DNA from: Alphaproteobacteria bacterium
GTDB lineage: Bacteria; Pseudomonadota; Alphaproteobacteria; MPNO01
Assembly (NCBI GenBank): GCA_964291675.2
Contig: OZ219866.1
Location: forward strand, 1,888,001 to 1,952,000
Length of the DNA: 64,000 bases
Direction of reading: 5' to 3'
The notes below the pieces were generated by a model, which was not told where the DNA came from, did no database searches, and was given only the letters and a program-made list of their open reading frames with translations. Each line of letters begins with the position of its first letter. The first letter of the stretch is position 1. The position numbers and the translations under genes are program-made. Of the stretch, positions 19,000 through 32,836 are shown piece after piece.

Positions 19000-19913
19000 T
19001 ATCGAAGGGCGGCCAGGCGGCACCCACGGCGTGGATCACCAGCCACGCGCCCATGGCGAATTCGGGCGGGATCGCGATCGCGCTTCCGGCAAGCTCGGCG
19101 ACGGGCACGCCGGCGGATTCGACGAAGCGCCTTGTCGCCGCGATATCGGCGCTTTCGAGGATTGCGGCGGCGATGAAGGGGAGGCTCGGCGGGCGGGCGG
19201 CGGGGAGGATGCGGGCGAGCCCGGCGGGGTCGACGAAATCGAGCCGGCCGCGGTCGAGCGCGACGGTCGACGGTCGCCGCCGCCGCCTCGCGCCCGGTGA
19301 AGCGGGCATGACGGGCGGCGGCCTCGGCAGGGTCGTCGGTGCAGACCAGGACGCCCGCGAGCCCGGCGAGCGCGTTGTCGCGGGCGATCGCCGAGTCCTG
19401 CCAGACGAGGTCGGGCGTCTCGTGGCGCAGGATCTGCATGCGGCCCTCCGCCATGGTGCCGGGCGGGACGCGCAGCACCGAGAACGCGGCCTCTTCCTCG
19501 CCGCCGCCGTCGACCGGCATCGGCCGGCGCAGATGGGCCACGGGCCGCGGCGCAAACCCGGCTTCCTCCAGCCGCCGCGCCTCGGCGTCGGTGTCGTCGA
19601 CCGAATACGCGATCAGGTGCAGCCCCTCATGGCGGGCGACCGCCTCGCGGTGGGCGCGCGCGAACGGCGTGTCGAGCCCCGCCACGTCGGTCAGGATCTC
19701 CAGATAGCCGCGCCGCAGCATGGCGCAGCGATTGGCGGTGCCGGTCGGCACGCGCTCGCCCGCCGCGTCTTCGTTGCGGTGGATCGTGAACGGGGTCAGC
19801 GGGAAGCCGAGGCGGGCGAACGCCCCGGATGCCGCGTCCATGTCGGAGACGAACCAGCCGACATGGTCGAGGAAGATCTCCCCCGGGGCGGGGGTCTGTG
19901 CGGCGGCGCTCAG
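19000..19913 (-). pseudogene. VOC/glyoxalase-like protein, frameshifted
   Basis: FLDHVGWFV, GTANRCAML and GYLEI; 7-bp tandem duplication at 19262..19275 shifts frame; 3' end interrupted by MITE-1. Confidence 0.7.
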
Positions 19914-20872
19914 TCGTCCCAGACCTCTTCCCAGCTTCCCTGGGTCGCCGCCTTGGAATACTCCGTCGCCCGGTTCTCGAAGAAGTTGGTGTGCTCCATG
20001 CCGTTGAGCATCTCGTCCATCCAGGGCAGCGGGTTGCGCTCGGTGCGGTAGATCGGCTGCAGGCCGAGCTGAGACAGGCGGCGGTCGGCGATGTAGCGGA
20101 TGTACTGCTTGACCTCCGCCCCGGTCAGCCCCTCCACGCCGCCGAGCTCGAAGGCGAGGTCGATGAACGCGTCCTCGTGCTCCACCACGGTGTTGCAGAT
20201 CGTGTAGAGCTCGCGCTGGAACGCCTCGGTCCAGATCTCCCGGTTCTCGTCGATGAAGGTGCGGAACAGGTGGACGATCGAATCCGTGTGCAGCGACTCG
20301 TCGCGCACCGACCAGGAGACGATCTGGCCCATCCCCTTCATCTTGTTGACGCGCGGGAAGTTCATCAGGATCGCGAAGCTGGCGAACAGCTGGAGCCCTT
20401 CGGTGAAGGCGCCGAACACGGCCAGCGTCTTGGCGATGTCCTCCTTGGTGTCGGTGCCGAATTGCTGCATGAAGTCGTACTTGTCCTTCATCTCCTTGTA
20501 GCGGAGGAAGGCCTGGTACTCGGTCTCCGGCATGCCGATGGTGTCGAGCAGATGCGAGTAGGCGGCGATGTGGACGGTCTCCATGTTGGAGAACGCCGAC
20601 AGCATCATCTGCACCTCGGTCGGCTCGAACACGCGGGCGTAGTGCCGCATGTAGCAGTTGTTCACCTCGATGTCGGACTGGGTGAAGAAGCGGAAGATCT
20701 GGGTCAGCGTATGGCGCTCTTCCGCGCTCAGCTTGTTGTGCCAGTCCTTGACGTCGTCGGCGAGCGGCACCTCCTCGGGCAGCCAGTGGATGCGCTGCTG
20801 GGTGAGCCAGGCGTCATAGGCCCAGGGGTAGCGGAAGGGCTTGTAGACTCCGTTCGAATCGAGCAGCGACAT
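19910..20872 (-). CDS. nrdB: Class Ia ribonucleotide reductase beta subunit
   Basis: FFTQSDIEV, ETVHIAAY, RDESLH and NFFENRATEY. Confidence 0.95.
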   Translation of the reverse strand: MSLLDSNGVYKPFRYPWAYDAWLTQQRIHWLPEEVPLADDVKDWHNKLSAEERHTLTQIFRFFTQSDIEVNNCYMRHYARVFEPTEVQMMLSAFSNMETVHIAAYSHLLDTIGMPETEYQAFLRYKEMKDKYDFMQQFGTDTKEDIAKTLAVFGAFTEGLQLFASFAILMNFPRVNKMKGMGQIVSWSVRDESLHTDSIVHLFRTFIDENREIWTEAFQRELYTICNTVVEHEDAFIDLAFELGGVEGLTGAEVKQYIRYIADRRLSQLGLQPIYRTERNPLPWMDEMLNGMEHTNFFENRATEYSKAATQGSWEEVWDD

Positions 20873-20890
20873 CGGCGTTCCTACCCGGAC

Positions 20891-22786
20891 CTACTGACAG
20901 GCGAGGCACTCTTCGTAGTCGTTGGCCGACGCTTCCGCGGCGGCCTGGCCGTTGGCCGCGCCGACCGGCACCGGGGTCTCGGCGCGGGCCCGCGCAGCCC
21001 CGTTGCCGATGACCGCGACGTCGACCCTGTTGGCCACCTTGTCGGCGCGCTGGATCGAGCGCGAGCGGCAATAGTAGAGCGACTTCACGCCCTTCTTCCA
21101 GGCCTGGAAGTGGATGTCGTGCAGGGTCTTCTTGTGCACGTCGGCCGGCAGGAACACGTTGAGCGACTGCGACTGGCAGACGAACGGCGCGCGGTCCGCC
21201 GCGAAGTCGATCAGCCAGCGCTGGTCGACCTCGAACGCGGTCTTGAAGATCGCCTTCTCGTCGTCCGAGAGGAAGTCGAGATGGGCGACCGAGCCCTCGT
21301 TGACGGTGATCGAGGTCCAGACGTCGTCGGTGTCCCTGCCCTTCGCGGCGAGCAGCGCCTTGAGGTACTTGTTGCGCACGCTGAACGAGCCCGACAGGGT
21401 CTTGTGGGTGAAGGCGTTGGCCACGTTGGGCTCGATCCCCGGCGAGCAGCCGCCGCAGATGATCGAGATCGAGGCGGTCGGCGCGATCGCCAGCTTGTTG
21501 GAGAAGCGCTCCTCGAAGCCGTAATCGGCGGCGTCCGGGCACGGCCCGCGCTCGGCGGCGAGCGCCCGCGAGGCGGCGTCGGCATGGCCCCTGATGTGGC
21601 GGAAGATGTTGCGGTTCCACGCCTTGGCCGCGGCCGATTCGATCGGCACGTTCTGGCTCTGCAGGAAGGAGTGGAAGCCCATCACCCCGAGCCCGACCGA
21701 GCGCTCGCGGCTCGCCGCGTAGCGCGCCCGCGACATGCTGTCCGGCGCGCTCTCGATGAAGTCGTCGAGCACGTTGTCGAGGAAGCGCATCACGTCCTCG
21801 ATGAACAGCGGATCGTTGCGCCATTCGAGGAAGGTCTCGAGGTTGAGCGAGGACAGGCAGCACACCGCCGTGCGCTCCTCGCCGTGATGGTCGGGGCCGG
21901 TCGGCAGCGTGATCTCGCTGCACAGATTCGACATGCGGACCTGGAGCCCGGCGAGCTTGTGGTGCTCGGGCGCGGCGCGGTTCACGTGGTCGATGAAGAT
22001 GAAATAGGGCTCGCCGGTCTCGATCCGGCTGGTCAGCAGGCGGATCCACAGCGCGCGCGCCCCGATGCGGCGCACCACCGTCTTGTCCTTGGGGCTGATC
22101 AGCGCCCATTCCTCGTCGTTCTCGACCGCGCGCATGAAGGCGTCGGTGATCACCACCCCGTGATGCAGGTTGAGCGCCTTGCGGTTGGGGTCGCCGCCGG
22201 TGGGGCGGCGGATCTCGATGAACTCCTCGATCTCGGGGTGGTCGATGCCGATATAGACCGCCGCCGAGCCGCGCCTGAGCGAGCCCTGCGAGATCGCCAG
22301 CGTCAGCGAATCCATCACCCGGATGAACGGGATGATGCCCGAGGTCTTGCCGTTGGCGCTGACCTTCTCGCCGATCGAGCGCAGATTGCCCCAGTAGCTG
22401 CCGATGCCGCCGCCGCGCGCGGCGAGCCAGACATTCTCGTTCCACAGATCGACGATGCCGTCGAGGCTGTCGGACGCCTCGTTGAGGAAGCACGAGATCG
22501 GCAGGCCGCGCACCGTGCCGCCGTTCGACAGCACCGGCGTCGACGGCATGAACCAGAGCCGCGACATGTAGTCGTACAGCCGCTGCGCGTGCCCGGAATC
22601 GTCGCCGTAATGCGAGCTCACCCGGTAGAACAGGTCCTGGTAGCTCTCGCCCGGCAGCAGATAGCGGTCGTCCAGCACCGCCCTGCCGAACCCGGTCAGC
22701 AGGGCGTCCCGGTCGCGATCGATCTCGACCGCGACGTCGCGCCTGGACTGAAGCAGGTCAAGCTTCGAGGAAACCAGATCTAGCAC
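20891..22786 (-). CDS. nrdA: Class Ia ribonucleotide reductase alpha subunit (no ATP cone)
   Basis: PISCFL, SNLCSEI, AIAPTAS, KSLYYCR and C-terminal CLAC. Confidence 0.95.
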   Translation of the reverse strand: MLDLVSSKLDLLQSRRDVAVEIDRDRDALLTGFGRAVLDDRYLLPGESYQDLFYRVSSHYGDDSGHAQRLYDYMSRLWFMPSTPVLSNGGTVRGLPISCFLNEASDSLDGIVDLWNENVWLAARGGGIGSYWGNLRSIGEKVSANGKTSGIIPFIRVMDSLTLAISQGSLRRGSAAVYIGIDHPEIEEFIEIRRPTGGDPNRKALNLHHGVVITDAFMRAVENDEEWALISPKDKTVVRRIGARALWIRLLTSRIETGEPYFIFIDHVNRAAPEHHKLAGLQVRMSNLCSEITLPTGPDHHGEERTAVCCLSSLNLETFLEWRNDPLFIEDVMRFLDNVLDDFIESAPDSMSRARYAASRERSVGLGVMGFHSFLQSQNVPIESAAAKAWNRNIFRHIRGHADAASRALAAERGPCPDAADYGFEERFSNKLAIAPTASISIICGGCSPGIEPNVANAFTHKTLSGSFSVRNKYLKALLAAKGRDTDDVWTSITVNEGSVAHLDFLSDDEKAIFKTAFEVDQRWLIDFAADRAPFVCQSQSLNVFLPADVHKKTLHDIHFQAWKKGVKSLYYCRSRSIQRADKVANRVDVAVIGNGAARARAETPVPVGAANGQAAAEASANDYEECLACQ

Positions 22787-22879
22787 CCGTCACCCCCCGC
22801 CGTTATCCGGCCCGTTTGCGGATCTGCGAAACGGCGCCGAAAACGAATCGGTTGCCGAAGCACCGCGAACCCCCAGCTT

Positions 22880-22927
22880 GCACAAGAAATTGTGGTCTCG
22901 CAAGAACAAACCTACCAAACATTGTGT
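22880..22927. promoter_or_regulatory. Tandem NrdR boxes
   Basis: GCACAAGAAATTGTGG (22880) and CTACCAAACATTGTGT (22912), 32 bp apart upstream of nrdA. Confidence 0.7.
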
Positions 22928-23060
22928 TATGCACGGCGACGAATTCCCCTGTTCGAATCCAATATTCGTCATTTGTTCGTCAATTGTACCAGCTAGGTTC
23001 GACGGCACAAGCTGTCGTTCGCCCTCTGTTCCGATTCGAATTGCGTGAATCCCGGGGATA

Positions 23061-23080
23061 GACCACAAGATATTGTGGTC
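23061..23080. promoter_or_regulatory. NrdR box (strong palindrome)
   Basis: GACCACAAGATATTGTGGTC. Confidence 0.7.
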
Positions 23081-23093
23081 GGGCGAACGCCCC

Positions 23094-25427
23094 TCAAGTC
23101 GCCGGATCGGCGCGGCACATCCGGGCCAGCGCGTCCGGGCGGATCGGGATCTCCGTCACCTCGACCGCGAAGGGGGCGAGCGCGTCCTCGACCGCCGCGG
23201 CGACCGCCGCGGCCGCCGGCACGGTGCCGCTCTCGCCCACCCCCTTGACGCCGAGCGGGTTCAGGCCGGTCGGCGATTCGAGGTGCCGGATGGCGATCGG
23301 CGGCAGCTCGACGGCGCCGGCGATCGTGTAGTCGGCGAGCGTCGCGGTGAGCGGCTGCGCCTCGCCGTCGAAGACGATGCGCTCCAGGATCGCGGTGCCG
23401 ATTCCGTGCGCGACGCCGCCCCGTACCTGGCCGTCGACGATCAGCGGGTTGATCATGCGCCCGCAATCGTGCACCACGACGTAGCGCAGGATCGCCACGT
23501 GTCCGGTCTCCGGATCGGCCTCGACCTCGGCGACGTGGCATCCGTTGGCGTAGCTCAGCGCATCGAAGGGCAGCGCCGCGGTGGCCTCCAGCCCGGGGGA
23601 GGCGCCGGCGGGGAGCGCGTAGCCGGGCGTGCCGTAGACCGCGTTGGCGAGCTCGCCGAAGCCGACGGAGAGCTCCGCCACGCCGCGCACCCGGGCGCAC
23701 CCGTCGACGAGCTCGATGTCGTCGGGCGCCGCTTCGAGGCGTAGCGCGGCGAGGCTGCGCAGCTTGTCCGCCACCTCGCTTGCCGCCGTCAGCGCCGACG
23801 AGCCGGCATTGACCGCCTGGCGGCTGGCCGAGGCGCCGATGCCGATCGCCATCGCGGCGGTATCGCCCATCACGATGTCGATCGACGCGGGGTCGACGCC
23901 GAGCCTGTCGGCGCAGATCTGCGCCAGCATGGTCCGCGTCCCCTGGCCGATCGCCGTCGCGCCGGTGACCAGGCTCACCCGCCCCGACGGGGCGACGCGC
24001 ACCGTCACCGCCTCGAACGGGCCGCGCCCGGTCCCCTTGACGTAGTTGGCGAGCCCGATGCCGAGATGGCGCCCTTCGGCGCGCGCCGCCGCCTGCCGCG
24101 CCCGGAACCCGTCCATCCCGGCGGCGTCCAGCGCGGCGTCGAGGCAGGCCGGGTAGTCGCCGCTGTCGAGCACGATGCCCGAGCCGCTGCGCGTCGCAAG
24201 CGGCCGCGCATAGGGCATCTCCTCGGCGGCGATGAAGTTGCGCCGCCGCACCTCCTCGCGCGCCAGCCCGGTTGCGGCGGCGATGCGGTCGACGATGCGC
24301 TCCATCGCGAAGATCCCCTGCGGATGCCCGGCGCCGCGCACCGGTGTGGTGGGCACCTTGTTGGTCACCGCCACCCGCACCCGCATCCGGTAGGCCGGCA
24401 AACGGTAGGGGCCGGGCACCACGGTCGCGGCGTTGTAGGAGAGGTTCAGCCCGCGCGCGGTATAGGCGCCGTGGTCGTGGATCATCTCGCCGCGCAGGGC
24501 GAGCAGGCGGCCGTCCGCGTCGGTCGCCGCCTCCATCTCCCAGTACTGGTCGCGCTCCTGGGTGGTGGCGGTGAAGTGCTCGCGCCGGTCCTCGATCCAC
24601 TTGACCGGACGGCCGAGACGCCGCGCCGCGTGGGCGATCACGATGTCCTCGGGGTAGACCACGAGCTTGGGCCCGAAGCCGCCGCCGAGATCGGCGGCGC
24701 GGACCGCGATCCGGCTCTCGTCGAGCCCGAGCGTCGCCACCAGGGCGCGCAGCGCGCCATGCGGCGCCTGGCTCGACAGAAACAGCGTCAGCCGGTCGTC
24801 GAGCGGGTCGGGTACGGCGACGGCGCCGCGGCACTCGATGGCGAGGCCGAGCCCCTTGTGCTGCTTCAGCGAGACCCGCACGCGATGGGCGGCGGCGGCG
24901 AAACCCGCCTCGACGTCGCCATAGCCGATCTCGTACTCGGCGAGCAGGTTGTCGTCGAGATGGCGATGCGCGCGGGGCGCGCCCTCGGCCAGCGCCTCGC
25001 TGCAGTCGGAGGCGGCGGGCAGGGCGCGGTAGTCGATTTCGACCGCCGCGGCCGCGTCCTCGGCGGCGTAGCGGCTGTCGGCCAAGACCACGGCGACCGG
25101 CTCGCCGACATGGCAGACCTCGTCCCGGGCGAGGATCTGGCGGTCCAGTATGTGGCGGTAGGACGGGCTCGGGAGCGCCGTCACCAGCCGTTCGGCGGCG
25201 AGATGCGGCGCGATCTCGGCATGGCCCAGCACCGCCGCCACCCCGGGCCGCGCGGCGGCGGCCGCGCTGTCGATGCCGGCGATCCCGGCATGGGCGAAGG
25301 GGCTGCGGACGAACGCCGCGTGCAGCATCCCCGGCAGGCCGATGTCGTCGACGAAGCGCCCGGCGCCGCGCAAGAGCGCCGGGTCCTCCAGCCGCTTGAT
25401 CGGCTTGCCGATCAGCGTGGAGCTCAG
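23094..25427 (-). CDS. Xanthine dehydrogenase/CoxL-family molybdopterin-binding subunit; start possibly CTG
   Basis: IGKPIKRLEDPALLRG, LGGGFGPK, GQGTRT and KGVGESG; active-site loop VRGAGHPQ. Confidence 0.88.
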   Translation of the reverse strand: MSSTLIGKPIKRLEDPALLRGAGRFVDDIGLPGMLHAAFVRSPFAHAGIAGIDSAAAAARPGVAAVLGHAEIAPHLAAERLVTALPSPSYRHILDRQILARDEVCHVGEPVAVVLADSRYAAEDAAAAVEIDYRALPAASDCSEALAEGAPRAHRHLDDNLLAEYEIGYGDVEAGFAAAAHRVRVSLKQHKGLGLAIECRGAVAVPDPLDDRLTLFLSSQAPHGALRALVATLGLDESRIAVRAADLGGGFGPKLVVYPEDIVIAHAARRLGRPVKWIEDRREHFTATTQERDQYWEMEAATDADGRLLALRGEMIHDHGAYTARGLNLSYNAATVVPGPYRLPAYRMRVRVAVTNKVPTTPVRGAGHPQGIFAMERIVDRIAAATGLAREEVRRRNFIAAEEMPYARPLATRSGSGIVLDSGDYPACLDAALDAAGMDGFRARQAAARAEGRHLGIGLANYVKGTGRGPFEAVTVRVAPSGRVSLVTGATAIGQGTRTMLAQICADRLGVDPASIDIVMGDTAAMAIGIGASASRQAVNAGSSALTAASEVADKLRSLAALRLEAAPDDIELVDGCARVRGVAELSVGFGELANAVYGTPGYALPAGASPGLEATAALPFDALSYANGCHVAEVEADPETGHVAILRYVVVHDCGRMINPLIVDGQVRGGVAHGIGTAILERIVFDGEAQPLTATLADYTIAGAVELPPIAIRHLESPTGLNPLGVKGVGESGTVPAAAAVAAAVEDALAPFAVEVTEIPIRPDALARMCRADPAT

Positions 25428-25894
25428 CTCTCCCGCCCCCGCTCGGTGACCACGCGCTCGAACGCCGCCAGGGTCTCCTCGCTGACATGGTGCTCCAGGC
25501 CCTCGGCATCGGCGCGCGCCGCGTCCTCGCTGACGCCGATCGCCTGGAGGAAGGCGACCACGATCTGGTGCCGCCGCCGCGAGGCCTCGGCGATGCGCCG
25601 CCCCTCGTCGGTCAGGAAAATCGCGCGATAGGGCTGGGTGGTGACCAGCCCGCTCTGCTGCAGCCGCGCGACCGTCTTGGTGACGCTCGCATGGGTCACG
25701 CCGAGCCGGCGCGAGATGTCGGCGGAGCGCGCCTCGCCGGTCGAGTCGATGAGGTCGGCGATCAGCTCGACATAGTCCTCGGCGATCTCGGTCTGACGCG
25801 CCAGCCGGGTCTGGCGGTGATGCCCGGCCTGCTCGTCGGGCTCGACGAGCACCGGCGCCACCTTCGCCGGCCTCCTGCGCGTGTCCTTCGCCAC
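25424..25894 (-). CDS. mntR: Manganese-dependent transcriptional regulator (DtxR/MntR)
   Basis: EIAEDYVELIADLI, PYRAIFLT, RRRHQIV and ADAEGLEHHVS. Confidence 0.9.
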   Translation of the reverse strand: MAKDTRRRPAKVAPVLVEPDEQAGHHRQTRLARQTEIAEDYVELIADLIDSTGEARSADISRRLGVTHASVTKTVARLQQSGLVTTQPYRAIFLTDEGRRIAEASRRRHQIVVAFLQAIGVSEDAARADAEGLEHHVSEETLAAFERVVTERGRES

Positions 25895-25946
25895 CCGGGT
25901 CCCCCGCCTTGCCGCGCCGCGCCGACTATGCCGGAGCGCGAGCCGC

Positions 25947-25992
25947 TTGACAATTCTGGGCCGGGGCCAAATAAGTTAGCCATGGTTAAACA
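25947..25992 (+). promoter_or_regulatory. Sigma70-like promoter overlapped by MntR-like operator
   Basis: TTGACA at 25947; near-palindrome AAGTTAGC-CATG-GTTAAACA (25973..25992) resembles the TAGC-N4-GCTA MntR box. Confidence 0.65.
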
Positions 25993-26016
25993 GTTCAGCG
26001 CGGGGAAAGACTGACA

Positions 26017-27849
26017 TTGGCACGCAACCGGGTTCGGGGGACGGCCCGGCCGGCGGCCGCGCTGCTCTGCCTCGCCGTCCTGCTGGCGGGCACGGCCTCG
26101 GCCCATGTGGCGAGCCGCGCCGAGTGGCACCCGCTGGCCGCCGCCTATCTCGACGCGGTGTTCGCGAGCCGGATCGACCCGGTCGACTGGCGGGGGATCG
26201 CGCGGCGCTACGACGGCACCGATCCGGCGTTCCGCCATGTCGGTTCCGAGCCGGCCTTCGCCGCGCTCGCCCGGCTCGCCCGCTTCGCCGGGACCGATCC
26301 CGGCGCGGCGATCCGCCGGGCGATCGCCGCGCGCGACGCAGGCGCGCTGAGGCAGGCGGCGGCGCGGGCCAACGCGACCGCGCTCCGCGCCGGGCTGGAG
26401 AGGGTTCGCGGGCTGCTGAACAGGCCGCGCGAGGCGCGCGCCGAGCTTCGTTCCGCCCGCCTCCTCTATCGCGGCTTCGAGACCGGCCTGCGCGCCCGCG
26501 ATCCGGCGGCGCACCGGCGTCTCGGGCTCGCCTGGCTCTCCCTCGCCACCCTGCTCTCCGGCGGGCAAAACGGGGCGGAGGCGGAACGCCTGATCGGCTT
26601 GCTGGCGGGCGAGATCCGCGCCCGGTTCGAGGCGGCGGCGCCGCCCTTGCCGCCATCCGCCCGGCTGCCGCCGGGCGGCGCGCTGGTCGAGCAGCGGCCG
26701 CTGCCCCGCGCGGTGCTCAATTTCGAGCGGCGCGGGGTGGAAGAGAAGACGCTCTTCCTCGTCGCCTATGGCGACATGCTGTTCGATTCGCCGGAAATTT
26801 TCGGCGCGCCGGCCCGCAGCCTCGGCCTCGCCTGCTCGTCCTGCCACAACCGGGGCGACGTCAACCGGGCGCTGTTCGTCCCCGGGCTCAGCCGCCGCCC
26901 CGGCGGGATCGACGTCGACAACGGCTTCTTCAACCCGCGCGGCAATGACCGGCGGTTCGACCCGCTGGACACGCCGAGCCTGCGCGGCATCCGCTTCACC
27001 GCGCCCTACGGGCGGGACGGGCGCACGGCGAGCCTGCGCGAATTCGTCCGCAACGTGATCGTCGGCGAGTTCGGCGGCGCGGAGCCGACCCCGCTGATGC
27101 TCGATGCCCTGCTCGCCTACATGAACGAGTTCGACTTCCTGCCGGCGCCGCTGCTGGCGCGCGACGGGCGCCTCAACGAGCGCGCGGGCGCGGCGGCGCG
27201 GCGCGGCGAGGCGATCTTCAACCGCCCCTTCCCCGGCATGGCGGGCCGGTCGTGTGCGACCTGCCACGTGCCGGACGGCAATTTCATCGACGGGCGGCGC
27301 CACGACATCGGCTCGGTCGCGGCCTCGATGCCCGGCGCCCGCGACGGCGCGCTGGATACCCCGACGCTCCTGGGCATCCGCTACACCGCGCCCTATTTCC
27401 ACGACGGCTCGCTGGCGACGCTCCCCGCCGTGGTCGCCTGGTTCGACCGGCGCTACCGCCTCGGCCTCGATGCGGGCGAGCGGGCCGACCTCGCGGCCTA
27501 TCTGGAGGCGGTCGGCACCGGGGAGCATCCCTTCGAGGCGTTCGACGGCACCAACACGCGCTTCCGGCTGGGCTTCGAGGAGGCTTCGACCTTCCTGTCG
27601 ACGCTGGACACGCTGATCCCGGCGCGCGACCGGCGCCATGCCTTGCTGCTGCTCGCCACCGTCGGCCGCGATCTGCGCTCCGATGCGGCGGCGATGGACA
27701 ACATCGCGGCGCTCGGCCGGGTGTCCGAGCTGGCCGCGAAGATCGACGCCATCTCGGACGCGGTCTCGGCGGAGGACTGGGCGGCGGCCGAGCGGCTGTG
27801 GGCCGGCTACAAGCAGGCGGAGGCGCGTCATGCGGCCGAGCTCTACTAG
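26017..27849 (+). CDS. Secreted di-heme cytochrome c peroxidase/MauG-like protein with extra helical domains
   Basis: Signal peptide ending ASA-H; CSSCH (~26833) and CATCH (~27253); DTPSLRGIRFTAPY and DTPTLLGIRYTAPYFHDGS. Confidence 0.8.
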   Translation: MARNRVRGTARPAAALLCLAVLLAGTASAHVASRAEWHPLAAAYLDAVFASRIDPVDWRGIARRYDGTDPAFRHVGSEPAFAALARLARFAGTDPGAAIRRAIAARDAGALRQAAARANATALRAGLERVRGLLNRPREARAELRSARLLYRGFETGLRARDPAAHRRLGLAWLSLATLLSGGQNGAEAERLIGLLAGEIRARFEAAAPPLPPSARLPPGGALVEQRPLPRAVLNFERRGVEEKTLFLVAYGDMLFDSPEIFGAPARSLGLACSSCHNRGDVNRALFVPGLSRRPGGIDVDNGFFNPRGNDRRFDPLDTPSLRGIRFTAPYGRDGRTASLREFVRNVIVGEFGGAEPTPLMLDALLAYMNEFDFLPAPLLARDGRLNERAGAAARRGEAIFNRPFPGMAGRSCATCHVPDGNFIDGRRHDIGSVAASMPGARDGALDTPTLLGIRYTAPYFHDGSLATLPAVVAWFDRRYRLGLDAGERADLAAYLEAVGTGEHPFEAFDGTNTRFRLGFEEASTFLSTLDTLIPARDRRHALLLLATVGRDLRSDAAAMDNIAALGRVSELAAKIDAISDAVSAEDWAAAERLWAGYKQAEARHAAELY

Positions 27850-28696
27850 GCGCCTCGCGCTCGCGCTTGCGCTCGCCGCGCTGGCCGCCTGGCCGGCGGC
27901 GGCGGACCGGCCGCTCACCGTCGCCTTCGTGCCGCAGGAGAACCCGGAGAAGCTGCTCGGCGACGTGCGCGCCATCGGCGCCTATCTGGAGGGCGCGACG
28001 GGACGGCGGATCGAGCCGCGCCTCACCATCGACCACGCGGCGGCGATCGAGAGCCTCGCGGCCGGGCGCGCCGACATCGCCTTCATGGGCGCGCTGCCCT
28101 ATGTGATGGCGCGCTCGCGCATCGGCGCGCGGGCGCTGCTGTCGGAGGTCTATCGCGGCAAGCCGAGCTACCGGGGCGCGGTGTTCGTGCGCCGGGATGG
28201 CGGGATCGCGCGGCTGGCGGAGTTGAGGGGCAAGTCCATCGCCTTCGCCGACCCGATCTCGGAATCGGGCTTCCTCTACCCGCTCGACCTGTTCGTCGAG
28301 GCCGGGCTGCTGGCCGCGCGCGACGACCCCAGGGCGTTTTTCGGCGAGGTCTATTTCGCGGGCGGCTACCAGCAGGCCATCCAGGCGGTGGCCAACGGGC
28401 TGGTCGACGCCGCCGGGGTGAGCATCTACGCGACGCTGCTGCTCGATGCCGGCCAGCGCGGCGCGGTCGCGGCGATCGCCCGCACGCCGCCGATCCCGTC
28501 CCATGTCGTGGTCGCCCGGGACGGGCTGGAGCCCGGCCTCCGCACCGCCTTCGTCGAGGCGATGCTGGGGCTCAACGCGCCCGCGAGGCGGCATCTGCTG
28601 AAACACGTCTATGGGCCGGACGGCTATGTCAGGCCGGACCACGCGGCCTATGACCGGGTCGCCGCGATGGCGCGCAAATACGGGCTGATCCGGTGA
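27830..28696 (+). CDS. PhnD/PtxB-fold ABC substrate-binding protein with non-canonical ligand residues
   Basis: Signal peptide; LRGKSIAFADPISESGFLYP and AVANGLVDAAG. Confidence 0.85.
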   Translation: MRPSSTRRLALALALAALAAWPAAADRPLTVAFVPQENPEKLLGDVRAIGAYLEGATGRRIEPRLTIDHAAAIESLAAGRADIAFMGALPYVMARSRIGARALLSEVYRGKPSYRGAVFVRRDGGIARLAELRGKSIAFADPISESGFLYPLDLFVEAGLLAARDDPRAFFGEVYFAGGYQQAIQAVANGLVDAAGVSIYATLLLDAGQRGAVAAIARTPPIPSHVVVARDGLEPGLRTAFVEAMLGLNAPARRHLLKHVYGPDGYVRPDHAAYDRVAAMARKYGLIR

Positions 28697-29517
28697 GCGC
28701 CGACGCGCTTCGCCTGTCGGGTCTCAGGGTCCGCTACGCCGCCGATGTGGAGGTTGCGCTGGCGATCGACGCGCTCGCGATCGCCGCCGGCGAACGCGTC
28801 GCGGTGATCGGGCCGAGCGGCTCCGGCAAGACCACGCTGTTGCGCGCGGTTCACGGGCTGGTCGCGCCGGAAGCCGGCACGGTCATGCTGGACGGCGTGG
28901 ACACGGCGTCGGCGGCGGCGCGCAGCCGCGTCTTCCGGCGCCGTCATGCCGCGGTGTTCCAGGAGTTCCAGCTCGTCGAGCGCGCCTCCGTGCTCGGCAA
29001 CGTGCTGTGCGGCCGGCTGGGCCACGCGCCGGTGCTGCCGAGCCTGCTCGGCCTGTTCGGCGCCGCCGACCGGGAGGCGGCGCTGGCGGCGATCGGGGCG
29101 ACCGGGCTCGGCGACTACCCGCGGCGCCGCGTCGACACACTGTCGGGCGGGCAGCGCCAGCGCGTCGCGGTCGCCCGCGCGCTCGCCCAGGCGCCGTCGC
29201 TGATCACCGCCGACGAGCCGGTCAGCAATCTCGACCCCGTCATCGCCGACGACATATTGCGCGCGCTCATGGGCTCGGCGCGCGATCACGCGATCACCGT
29301 GCTCGCCGCCGTGCATCACCCGGCGCTCGCCACCGCGCATGCCGACCGGGTGATCGGGCTCGCCGGGGGCGAGATCGTCCATGACAGCGCGGACGGCGCG
29401 CCGCTCGACGCATCGGCGCTCAGGCGGATCTACGGCCGCAGCGTGGCGCCGCAGATCGTCCAGGACGTGACGCCCCGCGAAGCCGGCGATGCGCGCTCCC
29501 CTCGCAACGTGGCGTAG
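28693..29517 (+). CDS. PhnC-like ABC ATPase
   Basis: GPSGSGKTT, LSGGQRQRV, ADEPVSNLDP and NVLCGRLG. Confidence 0.88.
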   Translation: MSADALRLSGLRVRYAADVEVALAIDALAIAAGERVAVIGPSGSGKTTLLRAVHGLVAPEAGTVMLDGVDTASAAARSRVFRRRHAAVFQEFQLVERASVLGNVLCGRLGHAPVLPSLLGLFGAADREAALAAIGATGLGDYPRRRVDTLSGGQRQRVAVARALAQAPSLITADEPVSNLDPVIADDILRALMGSARDHAITVLAAVHHPALATAHADRVIGLAGGEIVHDSADGAPLDASALRRIYGRSVAPQIVQDVTPREAGDARSPRNVA

Positions 29518-30265
29518 CAGCCTCGGCCGCGCGGCGGTGGCTCTCGGCATCGTCGTCGCGATCGCCTGGGCCTGGGCCGGGACCGGGTTCGATCCGGCCG
29601 CGCTCGGCATCGGCCTGCCCCGGCTCGGCGACTTCCTCGCCCGCATGGCGCCGCCCGATCTCAGCATCGCCGGCGTGGTGTTCCGGGCGATGCTGGAGAC
29701 GGTGCAGATCGCGCTGCTCGGCACCTTCCTCGGCGCTGTGCTCGCAATCGGGCTCGGCCTGCTGGCGGCCGCCAATTTGACGCCCGCCTGGGTCCACCAG
29801 CCGGTCAAATGGCTGCTCGGCGCGATCCGCGGAATCCCGGTGATCCTGCTCGCGCTGATGTTCGTCAGCGCCTACGGGCTCGGCCCGCTGCCCGGCGTGG
29901 CGGCGATCGCGCTGCATTCCTCGGGCATGCTGGGCAAGTTCTACGCCGAGGCGTTCGAGGCCGCCCGGCCCGGCCCGGTCGAGGCGCTGAGGACCGCCGG
30001 CGCGGCCTGGCCGCAGATCGTCCGCTTCGCGATGCTGCCCCAGATCGCCCCCGAGCTCGCCCGCGACACGCTGTTCCGCTTCGAGCTGAATCTGCGCGAA
30101 TCCCTGGTCCTCGGCCTGGTCGGCGCAGGCGGGATCGGCTTCTACATCCAGCTCTACGCCCGCGCATTCCACTACGACAAGGTGGCGACGCTGACGCTGG
30201 TCGTGCTGGCGATGGTGGTGCTGGTCGAGCAGGCGAGCGTGCTCGCACGGCGGCGGCTGAGCTGA
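29489..30265 (+). CDS. PhnE-like ABC permease
   Basis: GLGPLPG, GKFYAEAFE and FELNLRESLVLGLVGAGGIG. Confidence 0.88.
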   Translation: MRAPLATWRSSLGRAAVALGIVVAIAWAWAGTGFDPAALGIGLPRLGDFLARMAPPDLSIAGVVFRAMLETVQIALLGTFLGAVLAIGLGLLAAANLTPAWVHQPVKWLLGAIRGIPVILLALMFVSAYGLGPLPGVAAIALHSSGMLGKFYAEAFEAARPGPVEALRTAGAAWPQIVRFAMLPQIAPELARDTLFRFELNLRESLVLGLVGAGGIGFYIQLYARAFHYDKVATLTLVVLAMVVLVEQASVLARRRLS

Positions 30266-30291
30266 GCGAGGAGAGTCCGCGCGGCAACGCG

Positions 30292-30396
30292 TCCTTCGAT
30301 ACGCGGCTTCGCCGCTACTCAGGATGAGGTTGGAGGGTGGCGGTCCAGACTTCCCCCTCATCCTGAGTAGCCGCCGAAGGCGGCGTATCGAAGGAC
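30292..30396. repeat. Inverted pair of REP-A elements between convergent genes
   Basis: CCTTCGATACGCGGCTTCGCCGCTACTCAGGATGAGG and its inverted counterpart CCTCATCCTGAGTAG...CGTATCGAAGGA. Confidence 0.85.
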
Positions 30397-30403
30397 GCCC
30401 CGG

Positions 30404-30946
30404 CTAGCTCGCGATCTGCGGGCCCATCTGCTTGACCGCGCCGGTCTCCAGGTTGAAGGCGATGCGCGGGATCACGTCCAGATTGGTTCCCGTCACCCGG
30501 ACGAAGCGCGCGTCGTCGGGATAGTCGATCGAGTGGATCTTGCCGTCCGCATAGATCCCGGCATGCCCCGGCGTCAGCCGGTAGGATTTTTCCGGCCGGA
30601 CCTCGCCGCGGCCGGGATCCGAGCCGTCGTCGAGCCGCTCCCACTCGGTCATGTCGGTGTATTTGGTCGCCTGGCCGTAGATCGCCCAGGAGGCGCCGTG
30701 GTCGTGCGGCGGCGAGACCCGCGCGCTCGCGTTGATGTGGGACAGCACCTGGAAGCCGAGATCGGGATCGTCGTAGAGCACGCGGACCCCGCGCTCGACG
30801 CCCGGCCCGCAATATTCCTCGACGAACTCGGGCACCCGGAGCAGCCGTTCGAGGTCGCGGCGGACCTTCTCGCGACCGCCGGGGCCGGGGTCTTCGCCGA
30901 GATGCCTGCGGCAGTCCTGACAGAACTCTTCCAGCGTATAGGCCAT
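30404..30946 (-). CDS. Cupin / cysteine dioxygenase-like protein
   Basis: PPHDHGASWAIYG and IHSI metal-binding motifs. Confidence 0.7.
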   Translation of the reverse strand: MAYTLEEFCQDCRRHLGEDPGPGGREKVRRDLERLLRVPEFVEEYCGPGVERGVRVLYDDPDLGFQVLSHINASARVSPPHDHGASWAIYGQATKYTDMTEWERLDDGSDPGRGEVRPEKSYRLTPGHAGIYADGKIHSIDYPDDARFVRVTGTNLDVIPRIAFNLETGAVKQMGPQIAS

Positions 30947-31025
30947 GGGTCGTGCTCCCTCGATCCTCGCGGTCTCGTGCGATCTATCCTGCCACAGGGT
31001 TGGGGAACGGTGCTAGTCTCGGCGC

Positions 31026-32309
31026 ATGGCCCGGCCCGTCTCATCCGACCCGCCGCCCGCCGGCAAGCGCGCGCAATTCGCCTGGTGTCTCTACGACTGG
31101 GCCAATTCGGGCTTCCCGACGGTCATCGTCACCTTCGTCTTCGCCGCCTATTTCTCGCGCGCGGTAGCCGAGAACACCATCCAGGGCACCGCCGCGTGGG
31201 GCCACGCGCTGGCGATCTCGGGGGTGGCGATCGCGATCGTCAGCCCGATCCTGGGCTCGATCGCCGACCGCACGGGACGGCGCAAGCCCTGGCTCGGCGT
31301 CTTCGCCGCGATCACCATCGTTGCCTCGGCGCTGCTCTGGTACACCCGTCCCGAGCCGTCCTACGTGCTGTGGGCGCTGGTCTTCTTCGCCATCGCCAAT
31401 ACCGCCTTCGAGATCGGCAACGTGTTCTACAACGCGATGCTGCCGGGGCTGGCGGCGAAGGAGCGGATCGGCCGGCTGTCGGGCTGGAGCTGGGGGCTCG
31501 GCTATATGGGCGGGCTCTCTTGTCTCGGCCTGCTGCTGGTGCTGTTCGTCCAGGCCGAGACCCCGCTGTTCGGGCTCGACAAGGAGGCGGCCGAGCACAT
31601 CCGCATCGTCGGGCCGATGGTGGCGCTCTGGTTCGCCGTGTTCGCCATCCCGATCTTCCTCTGGACCCCCGACGAGGCGGGCAGGCGGACGACGGCGAGC
31701 GCGGCGATCCGCGAGGGGCTCGCCCAGCTCGCCGGCACGCTGCGCGAGATCAGGCGCCACGCCAATATCGCGCGCTTCCTGCTCGCCCGGCTGTTCTATG
31801 TCGACGGGATGAACACCATGTTCGCCTTCGGCGGCATCTACGCCGCCGGCACGTTCGGCATGTCGTTCGCCGAGATCATCCAGTTCGGCATCGCGCTCAA
31901 CGTCACCGCCGGGCTGGGCGCCGCCGGCTTCGCCTGGCTCGACGACCGCATCGGCTCCAAGCGCACCGTGCAGATCGGCATCTTGGGGCTGATCGCCTTC
32001 GGCGTGCCGCTGCTGGTGGTCGAGGGCAAGACCGCGTTCTGGCTGCTGGCGCTGCCGCTCGGCATCTTCATGGGGCCGGTGCAGGCGGCGAGCCGGTCGC
32101 TGATGGCCCATCTCGCCCCGACCGAGCTGAGGACCGAGATGTTCGGGCTCTACGCGCTGTCCGGCAAGGTGACATCCTTCGCCGGACCCGCGGTGCTCGC
32201 CTGGGCCACGGTCGCCTTCGAGTCGCAGCGCGCCGGGATGGCCACCATCATCGCCTTCTTCGTCGTCGGCTTCGTGCTGATCGCCCTGGTCGCGCCGCCG
32301 AGGCGGTAG
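31026..32309 (+). CDS. MFS transporter, UMF1/Atg22 family
   Basis: WCLYDWANS, FYNAMLP, QAASRSLM and FGLYALSGK. Confidence 0.88.
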   Translation: MARPVSSDPPPAGKRAQFAWCLYDWANSGFPTVIVTFVFAAYFSRAVAENTIQGTAAWGHALAISGVAIAIVSPILGSIADRTGRRKPWLGVFAAITIVASALLWYTRPEPSYVLWALVFFAIANTAFEIGNVFYNAMLPGLAAKERIGRLSGWSWGLGYMGGLSCLGLLLVLFVQAETPLFGLDKEAAEHIRIVGPMVALWFAVFAIPIFLWTPDEAGRRTTASAAIREGLAQLAGTLREIRRHANIARFLLARLFYVDGMNTMFAFGGIYAAGTFGMSFAEIIQFGIALNVTAGLGAAGFAWLDDRIGSKRTVQIGILGLIAFGVPLLVVEGKTAFWLLALPLGIFMGPVQAASRSLMAHLAPTELRTEMFGLYALSGKVTSFAGPAVLAWATVAFESQRAGMATIIAFFVVGFVLIALVAPPRR

Positions 32310-32359
32310 CCCCGTCGTTTCGACCGGGCGCAGCGAGCGGAGATATCGCGCGCCCACCG

Positions 32360-32836
32360 CCCCACCCCGTCATGGCCGGACTCGTTCCGGCCATCCACGC
32401 CGCCCGCAAGGGGCGCGGCCCCCGCTCCTCCCCCACCCCGTCATGCCCCGGCCCCCGGATCAAGTCCGGGGGTGATCCGGGCACCCATGGCCGGACTTGA
32501 TCCGGCCACCCACCGGCGCCACCCCTCCCCACGGGCCGTTGTGCGCGCCGAGAGGCTGCATGGGTGCCCGGATCAAGTCCGGGCATGACGAGGGGGGGTG
32601 AACGGGCGGGGGGTGCATGACGGGGTGGGGCAGCATGGCGAGCGTTCCGACGTTCGGGCGCGACGCCGGGGATCGTCGGCGGGCGCGACGCAGGTTCCAC
32701 CGCGCCGCCCCCCGTGACGCCCGGCCCCCGCTCCTTCTCCCCGCTATTCCACCGACTCCCCCCCCCCGTCATGCCCCGGCCCCCGGATCGAGTCCGGGCA
32801 CGACATAAGGGGGCGAGGGACGGGCGTATCGAAGGA
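32360..32836. repeat. REP-B cluster (MITE-1-type interior, ends degenerate)
   Basis: Multiple GTCATGCCCGG/CCGGATCAAGTCCGG units, same modules as 18542..18999. Confidence 0.85.

Follow-up and report, generated by a model that had tools for sequence, protein, structure and literature searches.

A conserved MntR-linked operon pairing a di-heme protein with a PhnD-type ABC transporter is a candidate manganese import system

The region described here lies in a stretch of 64,000 nucleotides (nt), hereafter the window, from an alphaproteobacterial genome with a G+C content of about 72% (Alphaproteobacteria bacterium, assembly GCA_964291675.2, contig OZ219866.1, positions 1,888,001 to 1,952,000 of the forward strand); gene coordinates are those of the window. 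The gene mntR (25424-25894, minus strand), encoding a 156-amino-acid (aa) repressor of the E. coli type of Mn(II)-sensing DtxR-family proteins, diverges from an operon of four plus-strand genes whose successive ends overlap. The first gene of the operon (26017-27849) encodes a secreted protein of 610 aa with a signal peptide and two heme-binding motifs, CSSCH at residues 273-277 and CATCH at residues 413-417, referred to below as the di-heme protein. It is followed by the genes of a substrate-binding protein (SBP) with the PhnD/PtxB fold (27830-28696), of a PhnC-like ATP-binding cassette (ABC) ATPase (28693-29517) and of an ABC permease of the PhnE family (29489-30265). The most likely start of the SBP gene is the ATG at 27830 (MRPSSTRR...), 20 nt inside the end of the di-heme gene. 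The initial annotation had described mntR as diverging from four overlapping genes, with no carbon-phosphorus (C-P) lyase or ptxD genes nearby, and both statements held. All of the elements are present at these coordinates, no C-P lyase, ptxD or htxA genes were detected by family scans among the neighbours in the window, and PhnJ was not found in the source genome (93.7% complete).

The regulator scored 199.2 bits with the E. coli-type MntR equivalog model NF008273 (cut-off 153) and matched the structure of E. coli MntR (2H09) with an E-value of 1.9e-38. Its residues D40, E43, H109, E131, E134 and H135 align without gaps to D8, E11, H77, E99, E102 and H103, which we take to be the Mn(II) ligands of B. 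subtilis MntR, and all six are kept. The spacer between mntR and the operon is 122 nt long. The operon promoter (25947-25975, plus strand) consists of the -35 hexamer TTGACA (25947-25952), a spacer of 17 nt and the -10-like hexamer AATAAG (25970-25975), and a consensus scan also gave a promoter-like site for mntR on the minus strand (25925-25953; TTGTCA, 17 nt, CATAGT), whose CATAGT region is kept in the Defluviicoccus-like spacers. Directly after AATAAG stands the palindrome TTAGCCATGGTTAA (25976-25989; extended form AAGTTAGCCATGGTTAAACA, 25973-25992), a putative MntR box. A palindrome overlapping the operon promoter had been reported before; it is present, and its position can now be refined to the -10/+1 side of a promoter whose -35 hexamer overlaps that of mntR on the opposite strand.

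The sequence TTAGCCATGGTTAA was found once in the window, where shuffles predict 0.04 matches, and the 14-base box pattern with at most one mismatch occurs at one further place in the 4.8-Mb genome (C2:871842). Looser consensus scans of the genome returned a few matches of equal or higher score (e.g., C1:193960, 12/14) besides lower-scoring ones, none of them tied to a promoter. On the operon promoter, TTAGCCATGGTTAA follows the MntR-type operator pattern AACATAGC-N4-GCTATGTT, and it has the core TAGC-N4-GCTA in common with AACATAGCnnnnGCTATGTT, the enterobacterial MntR consensus quoted in Rodionov et al. 2006 (PMC1698941). That paper also calls the mntR of Mesorhizobium sp. BNC1 "enigmatic", its sole candidate box being upstream of mntR itself. 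Such a pattern would be expected from a divergent, unrecognised target operon.

The distribution of these genes (hereafter, the module) was analyzed by scanning one genome per species for 185,579 prokaryote species, and relatives were detected at 295 places. The locus counts rest on the best 80 of these 295 places and are biased to long di-heme forms. These 80 places belong to Pseudomonadota, Acidobacteriota, Thermodesulfobacteriota and Dadabacteria, with one metagenome-assembled genome (MAG) of Akkermansiaceae. The Pseudomonadota comprise Defluviicoccus-like MAGs, which share 78-91% identity with the window, a large number of Rhodobacteraceae, and a few others (Hoeflea, Nisaea, Erythrobacter, Oricola and Porticoccus). 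Where 1 kb or more of sequence was available, the SBP gene was directly downstream of the di-heme gene (76/76 loci); where 3 kb or more was available, the order SBP-ATPase-permease was observed in 68 of 69 loci, the exception (L038) having the ATPase and permease genes just upstream. Of the 77 loci with room, 65 had a gene of the DtxR/MntR family directly upstream. This gene was divergent in 59 loci, from alphaproteobacteria, and co-directional in five detected by tblastn and in one more (L022) detected by Pfam. The motif TTAGC-N4-GCTAA, at 9/10 positions or better, was present in 58 of 60 divergent spacers (11,178 bases), compared with 3 sites in the 840,719 bases of flanking sequence in the loci, and the box was preceded at 15-35 nt by TTGACA in 59 of the 60 divergent loci. 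Both the palindrome and the neighbourhood are thus conserved across genomes, and control of the operon by a Mn-type MntR through a conserved, predicted operator is strongly supported by these sequence comparisons.

The co-directional regulators, from Thermodesulfobacteriota and Dadabacteria, have the length of DtxR and carry a FeoA-like domain. They keep five of the six ligand positions (D40, H109, E131, E134 and H135), with Asp and Glu in place of the Met and Cys of DtxR, and their best family is MntR (176 bits, vs 99-100 for DtxR), both scores being under cut-off. The loci compared are kin and not independent, and many of the roseobacter copies are near-identical and plasmid-borne, so that fewer independent events stand behind the counts than the figures suggest; the distribution across several phyla and two regulator architectures is not inflated by this kinship. 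Among 251 evenly sampled genomes of the roseobacter family, eight carried both the SBP and the di-heme orthologue, side by side, and no genome had one of the two alone. An SBP orthologue at E 1e-40 was detected in none of 400 other genomes in an even sample of the class (0/400), which shows the rarity of the module there. On the basis of gene content and gene order, these data show that the di-heme gene is, genetically, obligately coupled to the SBP and ABC genes.

In well-studied roseobacters the module was found on conjugative or mobilisable plasmids, and PLSDB holds 85 records with a relative, 56 of which are typed as conjugative or mobilisable. One record was inspected, plasmid pP54_b of Phaeobacter inhibens (65086-84213; L085), in which the module stands among genes for a DUF411 protein, a ZIP transporter, lspA and lnt, together with a cation P-type ATPase and L,D-transpeptidases; these surroundings look like a metal-tolerance island. 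Three other observations were made on the loci. In three of the non-alphaproteobacterial ones (Acidobacteriota and Thermodesulfobacteriota), which were checked for it, a gene for an outer-membrane beta-barrel (PF13557/DUF5777) precedes the di-heme gene or the regulator gene (L014:5608-6438, L016:6121-6936 and L027:6073-6951). An open reading frame (ORF) of 205 aa follows the permease gene at the same position in three Thermodesulfobacteriota/Dadabacteria loci (L021:11563-12180, L022:11594-12211 and L060:11563-12180), with no family match in the two copies scanned (L021 and L022). The SBP gene of a Roseovarius locus (L025:8851-9723) has an in-frame stop at codon 117, which probably marks a pseudogene or an error of sequencing; the tblastn matches of L030 are identical to those of L025.

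The comparison was extended to the window's own order, with 78 genomes in five families (f1 to f5), 72 of which encode an MntR above cut-off. The module was present in 16 of the 19 genomes of f1 and in the window's genome, and no Nramp transporter was detected in any of these 19 or in the window's genome. In f2, the module was counted in 5/5 genomes and Nramp in 3/5, and in f3 to f5 the figures were 0/53 and 1/53, respectively. Genus g7, with four genomes of f2, has Nramp in three of them. Its di-heme gene encodes a form of 412 aa that has a signal peptide of its own and lacks the N-terminal helical domain described below (L093:5817-7052, minus strand, and L094). No SBP orthologue was found in g7, and no transporter adjoins the short di-heme gene. 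The MntR box is absent from the g7 mntR spacer beside this gene, which may therefore be a remnant, and a box, ATGTTAGCCATGGCTAACCT, is located upstream of mntH (NF001923, 576 bits). Since the same operator precedes mntH in g7 and this operon in the sister genomes, the operon probably imports manganese; this is the strongest argument for such a function. Nramp was also considered as an order-wide complement of the module, which proved uninformative beyond the comparison of f1 with g7, since f3 to f5 have neither. Elsewhere in the window's genome there are two proteins of the ZnuA fold (PF01297), one matching ZnuA best, under its cut-off, and the other weak to all models; by these scores they do not appear as Mn binders.

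In this order, the genes found beside mntR or behind the box differ from lineage to lineage, and two further features were noted. A long ORF that follows the truncated g7 di-heme gene was discarded, as it reads as a high-GC antisense artefact. In family f3, an MntR box, TTGTTAGCCAAGGCTAACTT (L086:7440), lies between mntR and the gene of an ArsP_2 permease (PF11449; L086:7521-8732), an "arsenic efflux protein" in NCBIfam, and the same was seen in L090 and L095; this permease is a candidate for an undescribed MntR-controlled Mn transporter.

With regard to the transporter, the permease exceeded the PhnE cut-off (TIGR01097, 256.6 vs 216.7), the ATPase remained under that of the PhnC equivalog (TIGR02315, 223.2 vs 266.1), and the SBP, a PF12974 protein (194.1 bits), passed the model of the broad subfamily (TIGR01098, 146.5 vs 112.05) but not the PhnD equivalog (TIGR03431, 141.5 vs 261.1). 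In a family scan, the SBP gave no match with PF01297, the fold of the cluster A-I metal-binding proteins. Its predicted model (predicted local distance difference test, pLDDT, 89) has the fold of PtxB, ArrX, AioX and PhnD, with a Foldseek E-value of 1.5e-24 to PtxB 5O2J, and transferrins also appear among the fold matches. The two closest PF12974 paralogues in the genome belong to a different subfamily and apparently lack signal peptides, and their alignment with the SBP was uninformative as an internal control.

The phosphite ligands of P. stutzeri PtxB, as named in Bisson et al. 2017 (PMC5700983), were transferred to the SBP through HMMER alignments. Y94, S124 and S126 are kept as Y114, S144 and S146, and five of the eight pocket and latch positions are changed (D16Q, Y49H, T125E, H155Y and Y203H): the latch D16 corresponds to Q36, Y49 to H69, T125 to E145, H155 to Y180 and the capping Y203 to H225. 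None of the eight positions varies among 29 orthologues, which come from several phyla. The STS-H motif, the set of ligand Tyr residues and the capping Tyr that the same paper gives for PhnD/PtxB were not found in the SBP, in which S-E-S replaces S-T-S. No invariant Trp or Cys was present among the aligned orthologues. We infer that the oxyanion pocket has been turned into a His2-Tyr2-Glu pocket with the Ser-x-Ser loop retained. A pocket of this composition is nearer to those of ferric-binding proteins and transferrins than to the Mn(II) sites of the PsaA type, which are His2-Glu-Asp; the ferric proteins of the FbpA type have a His/Glu/Tyr/Tyr-type site plus an anion loop.

The di-heme protein matched PF03150 (37.8 vs a cut-off of 25.6), and its top-scoring NCBIfam models were MbnH (TIGR04039, 51.7) and MauG (TIGR03791, 40), both far under their cut-offs of 362.85 and 443.85; the MbnH-like 6E1C was the second match in the PDB. 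The predicted model (pLDDT 79) consists of a family-specific N-terminal helical domain (residues ~35-205), a core resembling bacterial cytochrome c peroxidase (bCCP) with the CxxCH motifs at 273 and 413 (~232-551), and a C-terminal four-helix bundle (~508-610). The core aligned with the bCCP 3O5C_A over 218 residues (Z 11.6, root-mean-square deviation 3.8). Its Foldseek matches were weak and included hydrazine synthase gamma, bCCPs, MauG and MbnH-like proteins (E 4e-3 to 4e-2; 4e-3 to 6e-3 for the bCCPs), and a wide structure search was swamped by the C-terminal bundle, the top match being PsbQ with a Z of 13.8, within the common range for helical bundles.

Fourteen residues after the His of the motif PYFHDG, the di-heme protein has Phe476, conserved in 90% or more of 38 sequences, which aligns to the high-potential-heme Met of BccP ("AVNTM") and to the Tyr of the MbnH-like 6E1C. 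The Met axial ligand of the bCCPs, presumably M275, and the Tyr axial ligand of MauG/MbnH are therefore both replaced in this protein. The bridging Trp of the FWDGR motif was not found either, PYGRDGR with the invariant R333 standing in its place; this placement was made from the alignment of paralogous domains and from invariant residues, and the confidence in the alignment is moderate. By its sequence features, the di-heme protein belongs to the bCCP/MauG superfamily and appears to lie outside every characterised subfamily. The predicted first mature residue (A-x-A rule) is His in 28 and Asp in 10 of the 38 sequences, and residue 38, in a W-H-P motif, is His in 35, Asp in two and Glu in one, so that residues of metal-ligand type are always present at both positions. 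The first heme motif is followed by an acidic stretch that is invariant (D299, D301, D311, D315 and D318). In total, more than 1,252 homologues, most of 590-650 aa, were found among 8,000 candidates scored, and the relatives form 151 clusters at 50% identity (E ≤1e-30), many of them short forms of 400-460 aa. The names given in RefSeq to the proteins of the module are "cytochrome c peroxidase", [quoted passage not shown] and "phnE", and the Protein Atlas has only generic "cytochrome c peroxidase" names.

The complex of the di-heme protein (residues 27-610, with two riding hemes) and the SBP (residues 25-288) was predicted. The interaction prediction score from aligned errors (ipSAE) was 0.70, 0.72 and 0.70 in three runs, and the best of three controls reached 0.00. 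The same mark is attained by 116 of 157 solved complexes and by 2 of 215 mismatched pairs, a benchmark that is only rough here, as own alignments and riding hemes were used. The runs agreed in at least 72% of the contacts, with a pLDDT of at least 84 for the partner. We know of no similar solved complex, so memorisation is an unlikely source of the score. The predicted interface comprises residues 34-36, helices 138-182 (with the invariant G170, W173 and L174) and residues 554-570 of the di-heme protein, and loops 67-71, 138-142 and 174-182 of the SBP, flanking H69, E145 and Y180 at the mouth of the cleft. The N-terminal domain and the C-terminal bundle are therefore predicted to dock at the cleft mouth of the SBP. 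The N-terminal domain is missing exactly in the lineage without the SBP, genus g7, and this joint absence supports the docking.

In our judgement, the module is a manganese import system under the control of MntR, with a probability of roughly 85%. The initial annotation had proposed a PhnDCE-type transporter repurposed for the uptake of Mn or Fe, and the conserved neighbourhood, the operator, the box before mntH and the altered pocket argue strongly for this proposal; judged by the type of regulator, the substrate would be Mn rather than Fe. It had also suggested that the di-heme protein sets the oxidation state of the metal, which is plausible, and for which the co-inheritance with the SBP and the predicted docking are the findings at hand. 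It is likely that, in the docked state, the di-heme protein acts directly on either the metal or the SBP.

With Mn(II) in ample supply, MntR would sit on the palindrome and keep the four genes repressed; scarcity of Mn would allow their expression. The His2-Tyr2-Glu pocket of the SBP, with Ser-x-Ser kept, would suit a hard metal cation, which the SBP would pass to the ABC importer of PhnE/PhnC type. As an obligate periplasmic partner, the di-heme protein would be docked at the mouth of the SBP cleft. At the docked SBP or beside it, its di-heme centre would oxidise Mn(II) to Mn(III) by means of H2O2 or another oxidant, and the Mn(III) would then be held in a tyrosinate-rich, FbpA/transferrin-like site. 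The outcome would be a high affinity, with the exclusion of Zn, Cd, Cu and Ni because these are unable to reach the +3 state. Such an oxidative trapping of Mn(II) as Mn(III) is favoured tentatively, at somewhat below even odds, because the pocket is tyrosinate-rich, because the family of the enzyme generates oxidants, and because this scheme gives an affinity and a selectivity for Mn that the coordination of Mn(II) cannot. That the module would be a redox-gated Mn importer, the first of its kind, with selectivity set by redox chemistry and not by coordination geometry, is a slightly more doubtful proposition. A supply of Mn insensitive to Zn, Cd and Cu would fit the setting of the roseobacter plasmids, although this is speculation.

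Several observations weigh against manganese import by this route. The family occurs in MAGs labelled as Thermodesulfobacteriota, where the supply of peroxide or oxygen is uncertain, and 12 of the 77 loci, mainly from Acidobacteriota, have no adjoining DtxR-family gene. In genus g7, a truncated di-heme gene persists next to mntR with no box between them, and the di-heme core may therefore have a function independent of the SBP. Families f3 to f5 lack Nramp as well as the module, which means that a missing Nramp is not in itself complementary to the module, and Tritonibacter mobilis has mntH in addition to a plasmid-borne module. Furthermore, the score of the complex expresses the model's own confidence and is no measurement, and the mapping of the pocket is a sequence alignment to PtxB at ~28% identity.

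Other explanations share part of this evidence. Just as MbnH turns a Trp of MbnP into a ligand for Cu, the di-heme enzyme could, without acting on the metal itself, oxidatively modify a residue of the SBP (e.g., an invariant Tyr or His of the pocket) to build a metal site for the conventional import of Mn(II). The best NCBIfam models (MbnH and MauG), the second PDB match (6E1C) and a partner that is encoded next door and predicted to bind agree with such a maturation, and the invariant W173 at the predicted interface may be likened to the interface Trp that relays a hole from MauG to its substrate protein. It is nevertheless considered unlikely, as Phe476 and Arg333 stand in place of the Tyr ligand and the bridging Trp, the family scores are far below the cut-offs, the SBP has no invariant Trp or Cys, and the conserved His/Asp at the mature N-terminus, near the interface, hints that the di-heme protein handles the metal itself. 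Somewhat less probable again is a reductive mobilisation, in which the di-heme cytochrome would reduce ligand-bound Mn(III) or colloidal Mn(IV) with electrons drawn from the periplasmic pool and give Mn(II) to the docked SBP. Any c-type cytochrome is able to reduce Mn(III), both oxic and suboxic waters are reported to contain ligand-bound Mn(III), and seawater isolates or marine samples are the source of several related records. The missing canonical peroxidase features (Met/Tyr ligand and bridging Trp) and the retention in g7 of the core enzyme along with MntH, a carrier of divalent Mn, would also be consistent with a reductase. By contrast, the two invariant Tyr residues of the pocket are typical of ferric-type trivalent sites, unlike the His2-Glu-Asp sites of PsaA, and the truncated g7 gene, with no box in its spacer, may be a remnant.

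The same pocket with its anion loop, which recalls the FbpA-type ferric proteins, would suit a transferrin-like importer of Fe(III) that works with an Fe(II) oxidase of the EfeB kind and a Fe-responsive regulator, and some members of the DtxR family are Fe sensors. Iron uptake is improbable, however, given that the regulators have a Mn-type ligand set and MntR as their best family, that the operator is the same as that preceding mntH, and that the known iron regulators of alphaproteobacteria are Fur, Irr and RirA according to Rodionov et al. 2006 (PMC1698941). Very little weight is given to the uptake of phosphite, phosphonate or another oxyanion with an incidental adjacency to mntR. The PF12974 fold, the closest structures (PtxB, ArrX and AioX), the PhnE score over the equivalog cut-off and the RefSeq labels of phosphonate transport genes point in this direction, but the STS-H motif and the capping Tyr are lost, the PhnD and PhnC scores are both under cut-off, no PhnJ was found in the genome, and Mn-type regulators and the box are conserved across several phyla. 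It is equally hard to maintain that the di-heme protein is a periplasmic peroxidase of a Mn-sparing defence against peroxide, induced when the Mn-based antioxidant capacity drops and only loosely tied to the transporter. The bCCP-like core and the g7 di-heme gene without a transporter would be in keeping with this role, whereas the strict co-inheritance and adjacency with the SBP, a dedicated domain predicted to dock on it and the loss of the canonical peroxidase residues speak against it.

The preferred reading, MntR-controlled manganese import, was also compared with the systems described so far. Bacterial Mn importers are known of the Nramp, ZnuA-fold ABC and ZIP types, besides a few others. 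The module resembles MntH and SitABCD/MntABC/PsaABC in the family of the regulator and the type of operator, with an identical box before mntH in the sister genus, and resembles the latter three also in its SBP-dependent ABC import. Its SBP has the PhnD/PtxB fold (PF12974), whereas PsaA and ZnuA belong to cluster A-I (PF01297). To our knowledge, no bacterial Mn importer has a PhnD-fold binding protein or requires a heme enzyme, and the known ones have no counterpart to the obligate di-heme partner of the module. With PtxABC/PhnCDE/HtxBCDE, AioX and ArrX the module has in common the fold, the order SBP-ATPase-permease and the PhnE-type permease; it differs from the phosphite and phosphonate systems in having no P-utilisation enzyme nearby and MntR as the regulator.

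As in MbnP/MbnH and MauG/preMADH, a di-heme enzyme of the MauG superfamily is encoded beside a periplasmic partner, in a context of metal uptake. Unlike MbnH and MauG, the di-heme protein has no Tyr ligand or bridging Trp and carries extra N- and C-terminal helical domains, and its partner is the SBP of an ABC transporter instead of MbnP or an amine dehydrogenase. The likeness to EfeUOB and Fet3-Ftr1 lies in the proposed logic alone, the extracytoplasmic oxidation of M(II) to M(III) by a heme or copper oxidase followed by a dedicated binding and transport partner. A family scan of the four module proteins gave no match with DyP, multicopper oxidase, cupredoxin/M75 or Ftr1/EfeU, and in contrast to these systems the metal would be Mn and not Fe, and the carrier an ABC importer and not a permease. 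FbpABC shares a type II periplasmic-binding fold with the module and has a His/Glu/Tyr/Tyr-type site with an anion-binding loop, which the pocket resembles, and differs from the module in SBP family, regulator and metal; we know of no redox partner for FbpA. In its workings the module is thus like an MntR-controlled ABC importer of Mn, outside the PsaA/SitA, PhnD/PtxB proper, bCCP and MauG/MbnH classes.

No link of MntR or manganese to a PhnD-type transporter or to this di-heme family was found in the full-text literature, subscription journals and supplements being outside the scope of the search, and the terms "phosphonate" and "transporter" are absent from the paper on the sequence similarity network of bCCP_MauG (PMC6405878). 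A redox-assisted route for Mn, if true, would be new, and parallel to Fet3-Ftr1 and EfeUOB for iron. Redox gating, if true, would make the uptake of Mn insensitive to Zn, Cd and Cu, which would fit the place of the module in the metal-resistance islands of roseobacter plasmids. In addition, surveys that take phnD or phnE homologues as a sign of phosphonate use would count this subfamily wrongly. The module is present in cultured, non-pathogenic roseobacters from the sea such as Phaeobacter inhibens, which is genetically tractable.

Regarding the surroundings of the module in the window, its immediate neighbours are a subunit of a molybdenum cofactor dehydrogenase, an ORF of 180 aa and a major facilitator superfamily protein. 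The 180-aa ORF (30404-30946, minus strand), just past the permease gene, is conserved in no relatives but the closest two (L001 and L002) and had no Pfam or NCBIfam match. An Rfam scan of positions 19000-32500 gave no family at gathering score, including the gap of ~300 nt at 22787-23093, upstream of the ribonucleotide reductase alpha gene, where the G+C content is below that of the surroundings. The alpha and beta genes of this class I ribonucleotide reductase (19910-22786, minus strand) are on the same strand as mntR and two genes downstream of it, and the alpha subunit, of 631 aa, was best matched by an alpha-subunit model of 604 positions. In family f4, mntR is directly followed by an ORF of 113 aa and then by class I ribonucleotide reductase genes (L089:7079-10920), and the position of this enzyme beside mntR hints at a Mn-linked ribonucleotide reductase.

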